A stretch of DNA of 64,000 bases from Candidatus Fervidifonticultor secundus. Its GTDB lineage: Bacteria > Sysuimicrobiota > Sysuimicrobiia > Sysuimicrobiales > Humicultoraceae. Where the stretch lies: contig JAVKIP010000017.1 in NCBI GenBank assembly GCA_031459385.1, positions 1-64,000 of the forward strand. Direction: 5' to 3'. Of this stretch, positions 9,001 to 18,000 are shown piece after piece. The stretch's first letter is position 1. Each line of letters begins with the position of its first letter. The position numbers are program-made.

Positions 9001-12000
9001 GGCGATCATGCGCGTCTCGCGTCGGATGGTGCGGGCCACGTCGGAGAGCGGGAACCCCACGCGCACGAAGACCTGCCGCTCCAGCGGGAACTCCGGAACG
9101 GCGCGGAGCAGGTCCAGGTAGGGCGTGCCCGACGGCGAGCGGCGCGCGTAGATCGCCAGCGGCTGGTCCAGGGGCGGGACGACGACGGCCAGGTCGGCGC
9201 GCCCGTCGGTGAACTGCAGCCGGCCGTCCCGGTAGATCTGGGCGTAGAGGATCGTGCCGGCCACCAGCCGGCGCGTGAGCCGGCTGCTGGTGGGCCCGGG
9301 CACGAGCCCTTCGGGCGTGCGGAGGAACGAGGACGCCTCCCGTGCCAGTTCCTCGGCCACGACCTTGGCCCGCAGGCGTACCTGCTCGCTCAGGGCGGTG
9401 CGCAGGCGCGAGGCGGCCAGGACGCCGAAGATGGCCGCGAACAGCACGGCCAGCCCGACGAAGGCCAGGAGGAACTTGCGCCGCAGGCTGAACCCGGTCA
9501 CGTCGAGTCTATAGTACCCGAAACGCCCGCAAAGACGCCGGGCGGCGCGCCAGCTGGCGCGCCGCCCGGGAGGGCGCGCGGCTTGCGGTTTTAGCGGTCG
9601 ATCGCGATCTGGACGATCTTCTTCGCGGTCTCGAGCGTCCGCACCACGGACTGCATGATCTGCGCGGCCTCGTCGGAGACGCGCGGGGTCTGGGCGTCGC
9701 CCTCCAGCCCGGCGCCGCCGCCGGTCGGCTGGGTGCGTGCCGCGAGTGCCAGGGCCTCAGCCGCCTGCCGGATGGCGCGGTCGATCAGCTGCTGCGCCTG
9801 CTCCTCGGGCCGAACCCCGCGGGTGCCCAGCACGCCGCTGGGGCCCACCGTGGCGGAGAGGTCGAGAGCCGGCTGCGCCGGCTGCGGGGTGGGGGTGTCG
9901 GTGCCGTTCCCCGCCTGGGCGAGCTCGGCCAGCCGCTTCGCGGCCTCCTCCGACCGGCGCTGGACCGCGGCGATCCACTGGACCTCGGCTGCCTCGCGCA
10001 CGACCCTGGCCTGGATCAGCAGGGGCCGGACGCCCTTGTAACTGTCGGGGCTCCCGGCGATCAGCCGGAAATTGGGCTCCCCGGCCCCCGCCAGCAGGTT
10101 GACCGACTCCTGGATGTGCCGACGCTGGGCGGAGGCGTCGACCGCCACGACCGCCAGCTTGGCCTCATCCAGCGCGCGGTCCAGCTCCGCCATGGCCTGC
10201 ATCAGCGGCGTCTTGTCCACGACCAGCTCGGGCAGGGGCTCTTCCTTCTCTTCCGTGGCGACCTGTACCGTGCTCTCTTCCTGCTGCTGCCGCGGCTTCT
10301 GCGGCTCGCTCTGCGCCACCACGGTCTTGCGCACCTCGGGAGCAGGCGCGGCGGTCGTCGCCACGTCCTCCTCGGCCGGCTTGACCGCGGCCGCGTCCTC
10401 GGCAGGCGGAGCGATCTCTTCCAGGGGGTTCTTGTAGATCTGTGTGAACGCCAGTGACGCTGTCGCCAGGATCGCCACCGGCACGAGCGCCAGCAGGATT
10501 CGCTTCACCGTGCCCACCTCCAGGGAATGTCGTCGTGCTCTGCCTGCCAATGTGCCATTCCTGGTCGCCAACGGGCCATACCAGGGCCGTCCAGGGAAGG
10601 TGGAAATTCGGTCAACCCGGCGGGCGGCCCCCCGGTCCGCGCGCCGGGCAGGGGCAGCACCGGCCAGTGGCGGAGGAGGTGGGATTTGAACCCACGAGGC
10701 GCACAAGCGCCCAACGGTTTTCGAGACCGTCCGGGTACCGGGCTCCCGAACTCCTCCAACTCCGTATCCTAGCATGAACGGCGCCTTGCGGTGGGGTCCG
10801 CGTACCTGGAAGCGTCGGTCCCCAGGGGTGACACGACGACCCGCGCGCGCTTCAGACGCCGTCTCCCCGGACCCTCCATGACGACGCCCCCAGCCCGCGA
10901 CGTCCGGACGACCGCGGACTCTTCCTCTGACCTGATACTGGCAGGGCCTCACGCCCCAGCAGCGGGATGGGATCGAGGGGGATCGCCATAGACATGTGGG
11001 GGTTGTATTGCCAGTCCACCTGTGAGCCCGTGCCGGAGGTCGAGAAGAAGATCGTGCCGGCCAGGCAATGACGGCTATCCCCACAGCCTTTCACCGTTCC
11101 GACGCCGGAGGGACATCGTTTAACGCAGCGGTGGTCCAACGATCTCGATGCCGTGAGCACGCGCCATCTCGCTCAACCGTTGAACAGCTTCGGGCGTCGG
11201 CTCGCCGGCCGGAGGTGGTAATGTTGGCTGGTCCGCCGGACGCGCCAATGTGCGCACAAAACGCTCAAAGTCGCCGCGAGTCGTTACCGTCAGCCAGCGT
11301 GCCCCTGCTGACGACTCCACACGGTAGGTATGTGGGAGCCCCTTCGGGGCCAAGAGGGTTTGACCAGGGCTAAGCCGTCGTTCTTCGTGTCCGACCTGGA
11401 AGCGCAACGCTCCTTCTAACAGATAAAAGGCTTCATCTTCGGTGTGATGGATATGCAGAGGAGGGGAGTCGGCAAACGGGGCGCGATGCTCGATGAGCGA
11501 GATGTCGTCCTTTCCCAAGTGTCCTGCTGGTGTTGCCGTCAGGTTTGGGACAGGGGGTACGCTTTTTTCATGGAGGTCTCCTCCGGAGGGGACCTCATGA
11601 AAGCACACAGATGCCCGTACACTAGCTGCGACAGGCCGCACGTTGACAAGTTGCAGTCCCGCGCAGTAGTGTGAAGTTGTCAATCGCATAGCGATGGAGC
11701 TCGCAGAGTTGCCCGCCGCGGGCTGATAGCTCCTACTGGGCGAGACCAGTGGGAGCTTTTTGTATCGGTGGAGGGGGAACCCGAGATGCCCGGACCGTGC
11801 TGGGTTGATGTGACGTTCCTAGAGGATGACCTATGCGAGATCACAGCCCTCCTGCCTGCCGGGCTGGCCGAACAGGAGGGGCTGGAGCGCGTGTTGTCCG
11901 AGGCGATGACGCTCTACCGCAACGACGAGGTGGCCTGGCGGCGGCTGCAATCGCAGCACGATGCCGAGGCGGAGGCTGCGCGGACGGAACTGAAGCGGAG

Positions 12001-15000: not shown

Positions 15001-18000
15001 GACGGCCTCGCGCTGGAACCGCTCCACCACCTGCCGCTGTTCCTGCCGCGTCTCCTCCACTTCGCCCACGGTGGCCGGGAAGGCCGGCCCGTGGATCGCC
15101 GTGAGCAGGGTCACCGAGGCGCCGTAGCGGACGGCGAGGTCCACGCCGACCTGGACGGCACGCCGCGCCTGCTCCGAGCCGTCATGAGGAATCAGGATCT
15201 GCCGGATCGTCATCCCAACTCCTCCTCGGTGGGTACGGGCTGCCAGGCACCCTCCGGACGAGACCGGGCGACCGCCGCTCGGCGAGGATCAAACCATCGC
15301 TGAGCGATCATCGTGGGCAGGACGGCGCTGGCGATGACCGTGGTGACCAGCAGCGAGAACTGCGTGCGATCGATGATGCCCGCATGAAGGCCATACAGCG
15401 ATGAGATTGTTCCGAAGGTGAGCCCGGTGCTCATCAGGAGCGTGGTGTAGATCGGCCCATCGGCCGCGTACCAGCGGGCCAGGGGCAGTACCCCGGCGAC
15501 CTTGGTGGCCATCTTCACTCCAAAGAGTACGGCCAGCACACCCAGATTAGCATAGACGGCGGGCAGCGCCACGTTCATCCCGGCTTTGACGAAGAAGAAC
15601 GGCGTGAGCAAAGCAAAGGCGACCACCCGGAACCGCTGTTGTTCCGCGCGGTGCGCGGCGAAGACCCGCGACACGGCCAGCCCGAGCACGAAAGCCGGAA
15701 GCACGGCGTGGCTGTCGGCGAGGCTGCCGACGTACATGAGGACGAGTAACGCCGCAAAGGCGCCCTTGATCTCCGGCTCGATGACCCGATTCCCGTAGCG
15801 GCGGAAGAACCAGGGATGCAGCCGGGGCATGGCCACGATGATCGCGGCGGAGACTGCCAGGAAGCCCGCGATCCACCACGTCGGATGGATGAAGAGGATG
15901 CTCAGTGCCGCGGCGGTGCCGAAGTCGGTGATGAATGTACTGGCCATGATGAGCTTGCCCAGCGGGGTGCTGGTCAGCCCGGTTTCCACGAGCACGGCAT
16001 AGACGACGGCGAGCGAGGTGGTGGACAGCGCCACGCCGGCGATCTTGGCCGCCTCCGGCGACCAGCGCAGTCCCCACCGCGCGAACGCCCAGGCGCCGAC
16101 GAACGGCAGCAGGAAGGAGACGCCCCCGATGAGGGCGCTCGCACCCAGCTTCTCGCGCAAGAGGTCGACGTCGACCTCCGCGCCGGCGAGAAACGTCAGG
16201 ACGATGCTGCCGAATCCCGCCAGGTAGTCGATCCAGGGCGTAGTGTGCAGGCCGAGGAAGTTCCCGCCGATCACTCCGAGTACGATCTCGATGAGCGCGA
16301 CCGAGATGCCCAACTCGACAGAGAGGATTGCCGCCACGAAGACGAGCAACCCCATCCCGACCGCGACCTGTGCCTCCACCATGCCACCGCTCCTCCCGGC
16401 CGCAGAAACAGAACGGCCCCGACGCTCCGTTGAGCCGGGGCCGGATTTCGTAAAAAAAGCCCCTGCCCGCAACGGGTAGAGGCTATCAGCCGGGGGTCCG
16501 GCGGTTCAGGCGAGCCTCATCGCCTGGCGACGATTATAGTGGAGGCCGTACCGCTGTCAATCCGGGCTGCCCTGCGTCCACTGGAGAAGCGTCGCAACGC
16601 GCCGCGTAGTTCTACCCGATCACATCAGGCGGTGCGGGCCCGCCATCTGGAAAACCACCATGGTCCTCCGTGCGAGGAGCGATGGCGCCGATGTCCAGAG
16701 TGCACCCCCCAGGCAGTGGCGGCGGACGCAGCATGAGATCGGCGAAGTAGAACCCGTCGCGTTCCAACACCTCGCCCACTGCTACGTGCAGCCGTCCGCG
16801 GAACATCGGCCCGGCGAGGACACAGGTGTGGAACTCACCGTTCTCGCCGCACGGATCGACGCCTGCCGGCAGTTCCGCGAGGAAGGCGTGGTCGAACGTC
16901 CGACCGGCGAACGACGGCGAGAGCTTGTTCGGATCGACGCAGGTGAGGATCGCCTCGACACCGGCGTCGATCATGCGCCGCGCAAGTACCCCGGTCGGCT
17001 CGTGCCAGATCGGAAAGAGCGGCTCGAGGCCGGTGCTTTTGAGCTGCCTGATCCGGTACGCGCGGATGTCCTCCAGGAAGAGATCGCCAAAGGCGACGTG
17101 CGTTGCGCCCCGCTCGAGCCCGTCTGCCAGCGCTTTGCGCATGGTGCGCTCGTAGACTTCGTTGGAGCAAGGCCATGGGAGCGGGACGATGTGGAGCGGG
17201 AGCTCGACCGCGTGCGCTTGCGCCTGGAGGATCTCGAGACGGGTCGAGTGCATCGCGACGCGTCCGTGCGTGGTGTTGACCGTCGTGAGGAGGCTGACGA
17301 CCTCGACGTCCGGATCCTGCCGCAGCATGTGCAAGGTCCAGGCGCTGTCCTTGCCCGAGCTCCATGAAAGCAAGACGCGGCGCGGCATCAGACAAACACC
17401 TCGGAGCGCAGTTCGGCACCGCGCATTTGTTCACGCGAAGGGGCGGAGGCAATCCGCCGGTAGAGGAAGCCGGAGCTCGGGTAGCGGCATGACGGCAGAA
17501 CTCCTCGCCGCCGAGGGCGGTCGGGCGCGATGGCGGGTGAGGCCGCTGGTTCTACGGCAGTGCGGCCGGTTGCAGCCCCGTTGGTGAGAAAGGAGATCCC
17601 GCGCGCCCGAGACGACCCCCCGTCGTCGCCCAACAAGAATTCGACAGAACTGTACAGGCACATCCAACACAGCGCTCGCTGCAGACCGACCCGAGCGTGC
17701 CACCATCGCCATCAGAGCGGAGCAAGAGTCGGGTCTCGTGTCCATGGTCTCCCCGCCCAAGCGGCCGTCGCTCCCGGTGTCCCATGCCCGCCCGATGCGC
17801 AGCGCTGACACCTCCTGTCCGCCGCCGCGGCCGCGGACTGCTATAATGCTGAACCGTGCCTTTCGCGATCGCCGCCAACCTGGTCATCCTCGCCGTGGTC
17901 CTGGCCGGACCGTTCCTCTCCCACCGGGTCGAACGGAATCTCGAGGGGTTCCTGTTCGTCATGGGCCTGGGGTCGGCGCTGGCCTCGGGTGCGCTGTCAG

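Follow-up and report, generated by a model that had tools for sequence, protein, structure and literature searches.

Two fluoride riboswitches and a CPA-type antiporter, without a recognisable CrcB or CLC exporter, in Candidatus Fervidifonticultor secundus

In the hot-spring bacterium Candidatus Fervidifonticultor secundus, in which neither known type of fluoride exporter was found, genes for an antiporter, another transporter and three proteins of uncharacterised function stand behind two fluoride aptamers, and this points to a possible alternative route for coping with fluoride. The window that we analysed is the whole stretch of 64,000 nt at positions 1 to 64,000 of contig JAVKIP010000017.1, and the locus within it (Table 1) is, in our judgement, probably best explained as a pair of transcriptional ON fluoride riboswitches, each with its own promoter and a terminator competing with the pseudoknot, driving two convergent operons in which the antiporter is the main effector. 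Six genes stand under the two aptamers: operon A, behind aptamer A, reads CPA-Usp-MFS-DUF6062, and operon B, behind aptamer B, consists in this genome of g988-g989. No fluoride regulon other than these two operons is detectable in the genome, and a whole-genome search with RF01734 found no further credible aptamer in it (E-values of 0.24-0.59 for the next three matches). To our knowledge, the two known bacterial fluoride exporters are the Fluc/CrcB channels and the CLC-F antiporters.

Table 1. Features of the fluoride locus, with positions counted along the window
Feature	Positions	Strand	Evidence and remarks
Possible operon B promoter, weak	11643..11672	+	TTGACA, 18-nt spacer, TAGTGT; read by eye, absent from promoter scan output
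Fluoride riboswitch aptamer B	11682..11742	+	RF01734 23 bits, 11 below Rfam cut-off; outermost P1 pair lost (A/A)
Intrinsic terminator, switch B	11728..11763	+	12-bp stem, then UUUUUGU; -23.2 kcal/mol, z -4.2; in terminator scan
g00988, 163 aa	11786..12277	+	Small N-terminal domain and coiled coil; no Pfam family; putative g00989 paralogue
g00989, 162 aa	12270..12758	+	RHH-like N-terminus, 73-residue helix, short C-terminal helix; no Pfam family; start overlaps g00988 stop by 8 nt
DUF6062 protein g00990, 244 aa	12843..13577	-	PF19538; two CxxC...CxxH sites, E-x-x-R-K-H-D-Y-R-F motif; ATG overlaps MFS stop
MFS transporter g00991, at most 413 aa	13574..14815	-	PF07690 MFS_1 138 bits; start uncertain, longest ORF overlaps Usp end by 46 nt
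Universal stress protein g00992, 147 aa	14770..15213	-	PF00582 133 bits; start overlaps CPA stop by 4 nt
CPA-type cation/proton antiporter g00993, 390 aa	15210..16382	-	TD-motif clade; PF00999 Na_H_Exchanger 123.1 bits (cut-off 26.2), residues 12-357
Intrinsic terminator, switch A	16451..16484	-	Hairpin -16.9 kcal/mol, z -2.2; seven U after hairpin
Fluoride riboswitch aptamer A	16470..16533	-	RF01734 43.6 bits, cut-off 34, full model length
Operon A promoter, predicted	16533..16560	-	TTGACA, 16-nt spacer, TATAAT; consensus matches 12/12; ends just before aptamer

The two switches and their operons

Members of the fluoride riboswitch class control gene expression through binding of fluoride in the form of a Mg-F complex and, by analogy with those that are characterised, fluoride binding would lead to transcription read-through at both switches. 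It was the survey's finding that the locus holds two fluoride aptamers, and both are real, being matched by RF01734 with 43.6 and 23 bits (Rfam gathering score, 34 bits), while orthologues of copy B in relatives reach 28.4-41.7 bits. Nine such B-type orthologues occupy the same position ahead of g988 homologues; seven pass the cut-off (34.2-41.7 bits) and two fail it (28.4-31.7 bits), and copy B itself is found with E-values of 4.5e-4 in a 601-nt search and 5.9e-4 in the whole genome. The 5' arm of the switch A terminator contains the 3' pseudoknot strand GCCUC, and that of switch B is the 3' pseudoknot strand AGCUCC. In addition, the predicted operon A promoter is the sole site with a 12/12 consensus match that the promoter scan gives within 11400-16800. 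Across 18 family aptamers, P1 and the pseudoknot are paired in 99.4% of cells, against 41-57% in slid controls; compensatory changes occur at two pseudoknot pairs, none of 500 shuffles reaches the observed covariation, and GAGGC/GCCUC in aptamer A covaries with GGAGC/GCUCC of the B type.

Above the cut-off, RF01734 is found in 10 of the 34 family genomes and in 39 of the 94 genomes of the phylum. The pairs of aptamers 4.4-7.0 kb apart that had been reported for five relatives (G001, G004, G005, G006 and G008) proved to be convergent, with both members above the cut-off. All six genes are still downstream of a fluoride aptamer in relatives, despite changes in order and strand, and the conserved linkage claimed for g988, g989 and DUF6062 is borne out there: orthologues of g988 lie downstream of B-type aptamers at nine relatives' loci, aptamer B is followed by g988-g989-DUF6062 on one strand at eight loci, and at loci L044-L046 a single strand carries an aptamer, g988, g989, DUF6062, MFS, a second aptamer, CPA and Usp. 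DUF6062 alone has flipped in the present genome, from operon B (its place in relatives) into operon A, and therefore stays fluoride-controlled. As for the gene content first described for the two operons, the families are those that Pfam returns, although the start of DUF6062 had to be moved from about 13481 to 13577.

CrcB and CLC in the genome and its relatives

The genome is a MAG of 59 contigs, 97.6% complete and with 5.5% contamination, and this completeness leaves a little room for an exporter in an assembly gap. The absence of CrcB and CLC from this genome and nearly the whole family, likewise part of the survey's finding, stands: neither CRCB (PF02537) nor Voltage_CLC (PF00654) has a match in the genome at E<=10, and each is present in a single one of the 34 family genomes (CRCB in the unpublished G024, CLC in G002). 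A CrcB profile made from the phylum's own genes and run unfiltered against all 38,214 six-frame ORFs reached no E-value better than 0.11, and searches of a second genome of the genus (G001, 4 contigs, 97% complete) returned no match to CRCB or CLC. Indeed, almost the whole phylum is without Fluc/CrcB or CLC-F, with CrcB in 6 of 94 genomes (6 of the 54 of high quality) and CLC in 14 of the 94. Since CrcB turns up directly behind an aptamer in four of the six phylum genomes that bear it, the search does detect this family. We also considered whether the CLCs of relatives could be of the fluoride type, and this is ruled out for all eight loci fetched and checked, which have GREGP and lack all three CLC-F signatures (GNNLI/GMGLI, GREGT/V and GEVTP, as given in an excerpt of PMC11139923).

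The antiporter clade and the partner proteins

The antiporter of operon A is a member of a clade that spans several phyla, has TD as its ion-site motif in TM5, and is dedicated to fluoride switches and almost always riboswitch-controlled. It comprises 77 loci in at least eight phyla at 57-83% identity, and the TD motif is present in 67 of 74 clade loci; ND replaces it in three family CPAs. With our own aptamer model a same-strand upstream aptamer is found at 49 of the 77 loci, Rfam at its cut-off places a fluoride aptamer ahead of 16 of the 20 loci tested, and in the rest of the phylum the CPA is the first gene behind 16 of the best 30 aptamers. The nearest solved structure is 4bwz (phmmer, E 1e-6, residues 15-370 aligned), which is NapA of Thermus thermophilus, an electrogenic CPA2 Na+/H+ antiporter. 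This single phmmer alignment sets ITDF of g00993 against IDDV of NapA, with TD at the position of NapA's DD, and the TM10 lysine aligns as well. Against the NCBIfam CPA2 model TIGR00932 the protein scores 93.6 bits, the cut-off being 238.3, and it has neither the score nor the TM5 DD of a CPA2.

CRCB and CLC are both missing from 37 of 50 genomes with a clade member, in a count that ignores kinship and for which the completeness of the 50 is not given; again with kinship ignored, CrcB occurs in none of the 16 Chloroflexota among the clade genomes, compared with 100 of 201 evenly drawn Chloroflexota genomes. Within the phylum, on the other hand, CrcB or CLC is found in 5 of 23 CPA-bearing genomes and in 12 of 71 CPA-free ones, so that presence of the CPA does not go along with loss of the exporters, and the CPA is not a necessary substitute; 59 of the 94 phylum genomes lack both exporter families and the CPA clade alike. 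The pairing of antiporters with fluoride riboswitches is already known from the literature, and an excerpt of PMC11139923 ranks riboswitch-associated Na+/H+ antiporters second in frequency among the classes of gene that go with fluoride riboswitches. In the literature on fluoride riboswitches we found no functional study of this clade.

DUF6062 is fluoride-linked across phyla. A same-strand fluoride aptamer lies upstream at 35 of 80 DUF6062 loci from many phyla (12 of 17 such aptamers that were re-tested are confirmed by Rfam), and the operon partners include CrcB, CPA-Usp, enolase, pyrophosphatase, MFS and MutS-like genes; we found no paper that links fluoride with DUF6062. Forms fused to a g989-like coiled coil also occur. 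The copy in operon A matches PF19538 (cut-off 27) with 41.3 bits on a shortened gene call and, when the genome is searched, with 56.7 bits. It is probably a zinc protein with two Cys3His sites, and the eight metal-ligand residues C26, C29, C64, H67, C125, C128, C162 and H165, invariant in the 80 DUF6062 sequences, are all kept in it. The AF2 model of DUF6062 is all-helical (pLDDT 93.8), and no solved structural analogue of it was found.

The products of operon B may be paralogues with RHH-like heads, assignments that are weak. An HMM of g988 cross-matches g989 ORFs, an hhalign comparison (A2 against A3; E 3e-4, probability 39%) lends weak support to the paralogy, and three of the five N-termini tested have RHH matches, all below cut-off (RHH_5 at E 3.2e-4, a FitA-like RHH at 0.009 and RelB at 0.028). 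AF2 models the g989 monomer with two helices after an extended stretch (pLDDT 81). There are 78 relatives of g989 among 1.84 billion representatives, and distant relatives of g988/g989 exist in Chloroflexota, where related ORFs come after DUF6062.

Alternative readings, proposed mechanism and known systems

Might aptamer B be a decaying relic, so that g988-g989 of this genome is no longer under fluoride control? Its score of 23 bits, 11 short of the cut-off, its A/A outermost P1 pair and the loss of DUF6062 from operon B all point that way, but the aptamer keeps every position that is invariant across the 18 family aptamers, its pseudoknot strands are complementary, a strong 12-bp terminator (-23.2 kcal/mol) overlaps the pseudoknot strand, and the g988 and g989 ORFs are intact, with an overlap that suggests translational coupling, all of which makes decay highly doubtful. 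We think it somewhat improbable that an exporter is present and was missed, whether in an assembly gap, as a protein too divergent for Pfam or as a constitutive new family, leaving the regulon merely accessory. The fragmentation into 59 contigs and the 5.5% contamination are consistent with such an oversight, and in the 59 phylum genomes without exporter family or CPA some other factor, or the habitat, must handle fluoride; moreover, an excerpt of PMC11139923 puts the share of Flucs under riboswitch control at no more than about 15%. However, the same absence is seen in the four-contig G001, CrcB is absent from 48 of the 54 high-quality genomes, the unfiltered lineage-specific profile finds nothing, and the position of CrcB behind an aptamer in four of six carriers argues that it is detectable.

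A further possibility within operon A itself is that fluoride export is really the work of the MFS protein, perhaps with the help of DUF6062, and that the role of the CPA is confined to restoring pH. Genome G013 (97% complete) encodes no CPA clade member, CrcB or CLC, and its sole riboswitch-controlled transporter is this MFS, which there follows the aptamer, g988, g989 and DUF6062 in that order. Such an exporter would also be in keeping with the overlap of the MFS stop by the DUF6062 start in the present genome, with the MFS homologue that adjoins DUF6062 at 11 of 80 loci, including Chloroflexota L055 (52% identity) and L072, and with the increase in fluoride tolerance that BenE-I, an unrelated transporter, confers on a P. 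putida crcB mutant (from an excerpt of PMC13104614). Yet the wider MFS subfamily has a same-strand upstream aptamer at only 2 of 80 loci (the best 80 of 494, mostly Acidobacteriota), and the NCBIfam matches of g00991, weak and every one under cut-off, resemble drug/H+ antiporters; on balance we regard the idea as unlikely.

Returning to the antiporter as main effector, we take it to be an electroneutral cation/H+ exchanger, through which fluoride stress would be relieved with no need for a dedicated anion exporter. It might admit protons, thereby shrinking the pH gradient that traps F- and letting HF leave, or it might correct the pH of the cytoplasm. The MFS, which would share its transcript, may be an anion exporter, and DUF6062 and the two RHH-like coiled-coil proteins would act as a soluble accessory or regulatory module. 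As a tentative proposal, which we hold with low confidence, the TD-motif CPA clade could be a third, CrcB/CLC-independent fluoride-resistance system and the main defence in lineages that have lost their exporters, with DUF6062 and its RHH-like partners as a second new fluoride-stress module. If this were true, the TD-motif CPA would move F-/HF itself or collapse the fluoride-trapping pH gradient, and the lineages concerned would be this hot-spring phylum, Limnocylindria, Methylomirabilota, Rokubacteria and Dormibacterota.

Compared with the characterised fluoride riboswitch (crcB motif RNA, RF01734), the aptamers of the locus share the architecture of P1, P2 and pseudoknot and the conserved core, and their terminators share the 3' pseudoknot strand, as in the transcriptional ON crcB riboswitch of Bacillus cereus; they differ in that neither copy controls an exporter and that copy B is of a subtype of this lineage with scores near the Rfam cut-off or below it. 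Fluc/CrcB and CLC-F hold the same regulatory position behind the switch in other organisms and in six genomes of the phylum, whereas the present genome encodes neither. Pfam gives no function for DUF6062 (PF19538), and its link to fluoride, the pair of coiled-coil proteins that accompany it and the existence of fused forms are additions made here. The antiporter is of the same fold family as NapA (PDB 4bwz), but Thr in g00993, and Asn in three relatives, takes the place of the first Asp of NapA's DD ion site. Like the known riboswitch-associated Na+/H+ antiporters, it is a CPA-superfamily transporter directly behind an aptamer and followed by a universal stress protein; what sets it apart is its membership of one defined cross-phylum TD clade, found mostly in CrcB/CLC-free genomes.

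Two fluoride switches and the genes behind them

The survey had reported a strong and a weak fluoride aptamer in Candidatus Fervidifonticultor secundus, here called A and B, each heading one operon, and both of them stand. Aptamer A clears the RF01734 cut-off, and a scan of the whole 3.30-Mb genome with this model yields no third credible aptamer, the three further matches (E 0.24-0.59) being regarded as noise. Aptamer B belongs to a tight subtype in which ten sequences, B included, have the invariant core GCGAUGGAGCUCG...GGCUGAUAGCUCCU in common, and its chief difference from that subtype is the loss of the outermost P1 pair. 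Among 18 aptamers of the family, pairing in P1 and the pseudoknot is 99.4% complete; at two pseudoknot pairs G-C/A-U gives way to A-U/G-C between the A and B subtypes, and the covariation score is attained in 0 of 500 shuffles. We take B to be a genuine aptamer, possibly a weakened one. A joint covariance model was abandoned because the MAFFT alignment of P2 was wrong between A-type and B-type sequences, and separate A-type and B-type models were built and used as our own aptamer models. In both switches the 5' arm of the terminator is the 3' strand of the pseudoknot, and an aptamer with a terminator overlapping its pseudoknot is, on its sequence, the layout of a transcriptional ON switch.

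Features of the fluoride locus and its surroundings (window coordinates)
Feature	Position	Strand	Details
Aptamer A	16470-16533	-	RF01734, 43.6 bits (cut-off 34)
Promoter of A			perfect TTGACA-16-TATAAT by consensus match; ends at first base of aptamer A
Terminator of A			hairpin, -16.9 kcal/mol, then seven U
CPA-type antiporter	16382-15210	-	behind A
Universal stress protein (Usp)	15213-14770	-	behind A
MFS transporter	14815-13574	-	behind A
DUF6062	13577-12843	-	behind A; 244 aa; ATG overlaps MFS stop
Aptamer B	11682-11742	+	RF01734, 23 bits; E 4.5e-4 local, 5.9e-4 genome-wide
Candidate promoter of B			weaker TTGACA-18-TAGTGT, seen by eye only
Terminator of B	11728-11757	+	12-bp stem, -23.2 kcal/mol, z -4.2, then UUUUUGU
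g988	11786-12277	+	behind B
g989	12270-12758	+	behind B; frame overlaps g988
COG2908 RNA, weak match	11657-11699	+	18.9 bits (cut-off 58.7); overlaps 5' end of B; probably chance
Cupin-domain gene	11120-11560	-	Cupin_2, E 4.5e-16; divergent from B
Diphthamide-synthase-like gene	16612-17388	-	PF01902; its end lies close upstream of the promoter of A
Large bacterial SRP RNA	4383-4648	-	181.9 bits
tRNA, long variable arm	10671-10757	-	87 nt, 48.6 bits

The four genes that the survey placed behind A are all there, save that its call of DUF6062 was too short and lacked the first CxxC, and the two genes behind B, g988 and g989, are indeed without a family, as neither has a Pfam or NCBIfam match above cut-off. 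Of the neighbouring genes, the cupin is worth a remark, since its longest open frame would overlap aptamer B, so that its true start probably lies further downstream. The full region is also present in four DNA data sets labelled hot springs metagenome, which may be the source sample; no RNA data set is listed as containing it.

Within the family (34 genomes), RF01734 reaches its cut-off in ten, and a convergent pair of aptamers 4.4-7.0 kb apart, both above cut-off, recurs in the five relatives for which pairs had been reported (G001, G004, G005, G006 and G008). The link of g988, g989 and DUF6062 to an aptamer is conserved too, for in eight relatives' loci a B-type aptamer is followed on a single strand by all three genes, and in a ninth (G009) by the first two alone. 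In the family, 9 of the 34 genomes encode DUF6062, namely those with a B-type aptamer save G009. In the genome at hand DUF6062 stands alone on the opposite strand, where the two convergent operons meet, and it has thus merely moved between fluoride switches. Three Armatimonadota-like MAGs (loci L044-L046) are collinear, with an aptamer, g988, g989, DUF6062, MFS, a second aptamer, the antiporter and Usp. The regulon is kept, as gene content would have it, though gene order varies.

DUF6062 and its coiled-coil partners

In the literature searched we found no mention of DUF6062. Species genomes gave 350 loci, of which 80 were retained. Over 80 sequences of the family, eight ligand residues, arranged as two CxxC...CxxH sets, are invariant, as is an E-R-K-D core within an ExxRKHDYRF motif. 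AlphaFold predicts an all-helical protein with high confidence (pLDDT 93.8, pTM 0.87); Foldseek gave no PDB match at E<=1e-3, which is no proof of a new fold, and the best VIA-align score against 48,161 chains was Z 5.3 over 57 residues, with no convincing solved analogue. Using our own models at E<=0.01, we found a same-strand upstream fluoride aptamer at 35 of the 80 loci. Ten of these are of the Armatimonadota type, with g988 and g989 between aptamer and DUF6062 (four of the ten being family genomes already counted), and the other 25 come from Chloroflexota, NC10, Omnitrophota, Clostridia, UBP3 and others, the aptamer lying 60-170 nt upstream in most of them. When 17 loci were put to the Rfam model, seven aptamers scored above cut-off, five more at E<=0.01 and three failed, with two not re-run; the calls unconfirmed by Rfam at E<=0.01 are those at L055, L061 and L090. 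The L055 call (2701-2797) overlaps a CRISPR-DR9-like match (43 bits, cut-off 45).

The operon partners of DUF6062 are varied, and include CrcB, the antiporter with Usp, enolase (6 loci), pyrophosphatase, MFS, HEAT/zinc-ribbon proteins, MutS-like ATPases and tandem DUF6062 paralogues. Fusions of the domain to dynamin-like GTPases (637-803 aa) are also seen in the protein atlas, from Acidobacteriota and Actinomycetota.

In both g988 and g989 a short N-terminal domain is followed by a long helix and, at the C-terminus, a basic-aromatic helix. The g988 HMM matches g989 open frames, and the alignment of the two profiles, though weak (E 3e-4, probability 39%), covers both from end to end. Among 1.84 billion representative proteins the g989 profile detects just 78 relatives. 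Three of the five N-termini tested give ribbon-helix-helix matches, below cut-offs and over the same residues; such a head, if that is what it is, would point to binding of DNA and to a role in regulation. In Chloroflexota loci distant relatives of g988/g989 follow DUF6062, and some DUF6062 proteins of about 365 aa end in a coiled coil that can be aligned to the helix of g989 (E 2.8e-5, probability 74%). Such fusion and the conserved adjacency suggest that g988, g989 and DUF6062 may work together; a complex prediction for DUF6062 with g989 scored 0.00, which counts neither for nor against.

A switch-linked antiporter and the missing exporters

The survey's claim that the genome encodes neither of the known exporter families, CrcB and CLC, is borne out: six-frame searches with CRCB and Voltage_CLC returned no match at E<=10, while 11 and 13 of 14 control genomes, respectively, were positive. 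An unfiltered profile made from the phylum's own CrcB genes reached at best E 0.11 over the 38,214 six-frame open frames of this genome, which is 97.6% complete with 5.5% contamination. A relative of the same genus, G001 (4 contigs, 97% complete), has both aptamers and neither exporter family. The near family-wide absence extends to the phylum (a single order in the collection used; 94 species), where CRCB is found in 6/94 genomes (6/54 of those of high quality), CLC in 14/94 and one or the other in 17/94. All eight CLC loci fetched from the phylum carry GREGP, presumably the mark of chloride-type CLCs. None of the eight has the CLC-F signatures GNNLI/GMGLI, GREGT/V or GEVTP, as listed in PMC11139923. 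Fluoride aptamers above cut-off occur in 39/94 genomes, with a maximum of six per genome; all six CrcB genomes (one of them, G024, unpublished) are among these 39, and in four CrcB lies directly behind an aptamer. As far as homology searches can tell, the absence of exporters holds as a pattern of the whole lineage. According to PMC11139923, >85% of representative bacteria have a fluoride exporter, the exceptions tending to be symbionts with a reduced genome. Three further members of the phylum (G067, G065 and G071) have 4-6 fluoride aptamers each, no CrcB and no antiporter of the clade described below, the first genes behind their aptamers including MoxR-type AAA ATPases, MFS and a DUF6062-like protein.

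The antiporter behind A matches Na_H_Exchanger at 123 bits and falls below the NCBIfam CPA2 cut-off; the genome has one further CPA, on a different contig. Among solved structures the antiporter behind A comes closest to NapA (4bwz; E 1e-6), from which it differs at the ion-binding motif, with ITDF in place of IDDV. Relatives of 57-83% identity were found at 77 loci in Methylomirabilota/NC10, Rokubacteria, Chloroflexota, Actinomycetota (including cultured Streptomyces and Sphaerimonospora), Acidobacteriota, Dormibacterota and others, and among the 74 alignable loci the motif is TD in 67, TN in four and TG in two; three family members about 47% identical (G001, G004 and G005) have ND. A same-strand upstream aptamer is found at 49/77 loci with our own model and at 16/20 diverse loci with Rfam at cut-off, which also detected four that our model missed. 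Moreover, among the 30 top-scoring aptamers elsewhere in the phylum, this antiporter is the first gene behind 16, the other 14 preceding CrcB (3), MutS-like proteins (2), MoxR ATPases (2), MFS (1), a DUF6062-like protein (1) and unknown genes (5). We therefore regard the clade as dedicated to fluoride switches. Searches of the literature on fluoride riboswitches yielded no functional study of it, and the 'TD-motif' named in the literature is a different one, in TM4 of plant NHX1, which does not apply here.

On one NC10 contig (loci L101 4941-6956 and L198), DUF6062 and a TD-motif antiporter share a single 671-aa open frame behind a fluoride aptamer, which may be either a true fusion or two adjoining in-frame genes. 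The antiporter there is 66% identical to ours across phyla, which suggests that the cassette moved by horizontal transfer. Downstream of the fluoride-switched antiporter, at a distance of about 1.5 kb, two Chloroflexota loci have c-di-AMP riboswitches (L156 5226-5352, 64 bits; L192 5078-5204, 49.7 bits).

Does the antiporter replace a missing exporter? Among 50 clade-bearing genomes of other phyla, CRCB is present in 8, CLC in 10 and neither in 37, and CrcB occurs in 0/16 Chloroflexota with the clade against 100/201 evenly drawn ones (>=80% completeness; the positives include the unpublished G181), comparisons that favour the idea and ignore shared ancestry. Against it, the phylum itself shows no such relation, since an exporter family is present in 5/23 of its antiporter-bearing genomes and in 12/71 others, again ignoring shared ancestry, and 59/94 have neither exporter family nor antiporter. 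The MFS transporter is a second candidate effector, being the sole switch-controlled transporter in G013, a genome without this antiporter, CrcB or CLC, and adjoining DUF6062 in 11/80 loci; however, its broader subfamily is riboswitch-linked in just 2/80. Our reading is that the antiporter would be the main riboswitch-controlled effector. Its ND/TD motif would fit an electroneutral exchanger, and by swapping cations for protons it might lower the pH gradient or correct cytoplasmic pH. Such exchange could ease fluoride stress because, according to PMC11139923, HF enters by diffusion and fluoride then accumulates inside, trapped to a degree set by the pH gradient.

Comparison with known fluoride defences

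The survey's observation is thus confirmed as a whole and its interpretation supported. Already known are this class of riboswitch and the fact that it pairs with antiporters, which PMC11139923 ranks as the second most common riboswitch-associated class. What is new is that fluoride sensing goes along with a lack of known exporters across the lineage, that a TD-motif antiporter clade is defined which is tied to the switch and occurs mostly in exporter-less genomes, and that DUF6062 has coiled-coil partners. The antiporter, the MFS transporter and the DUF6062/coiled-coil module furnish three cloneable candidates. New fluoride-tolerance parts are also sought for engineering organofluorine degradation or synthesis. 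Current reviews (PMC11139923) make export by Fluc or CLC-F the first line of defence and put the absence of exporters down mainly to reduced, host-bound genomes. This phylum is free-living, with genomes of 2-5 Mb, riboswitch sensing in 39 of 94 species and a known exporter in only six, and survival without an exporter hence becomes a directly testable question.
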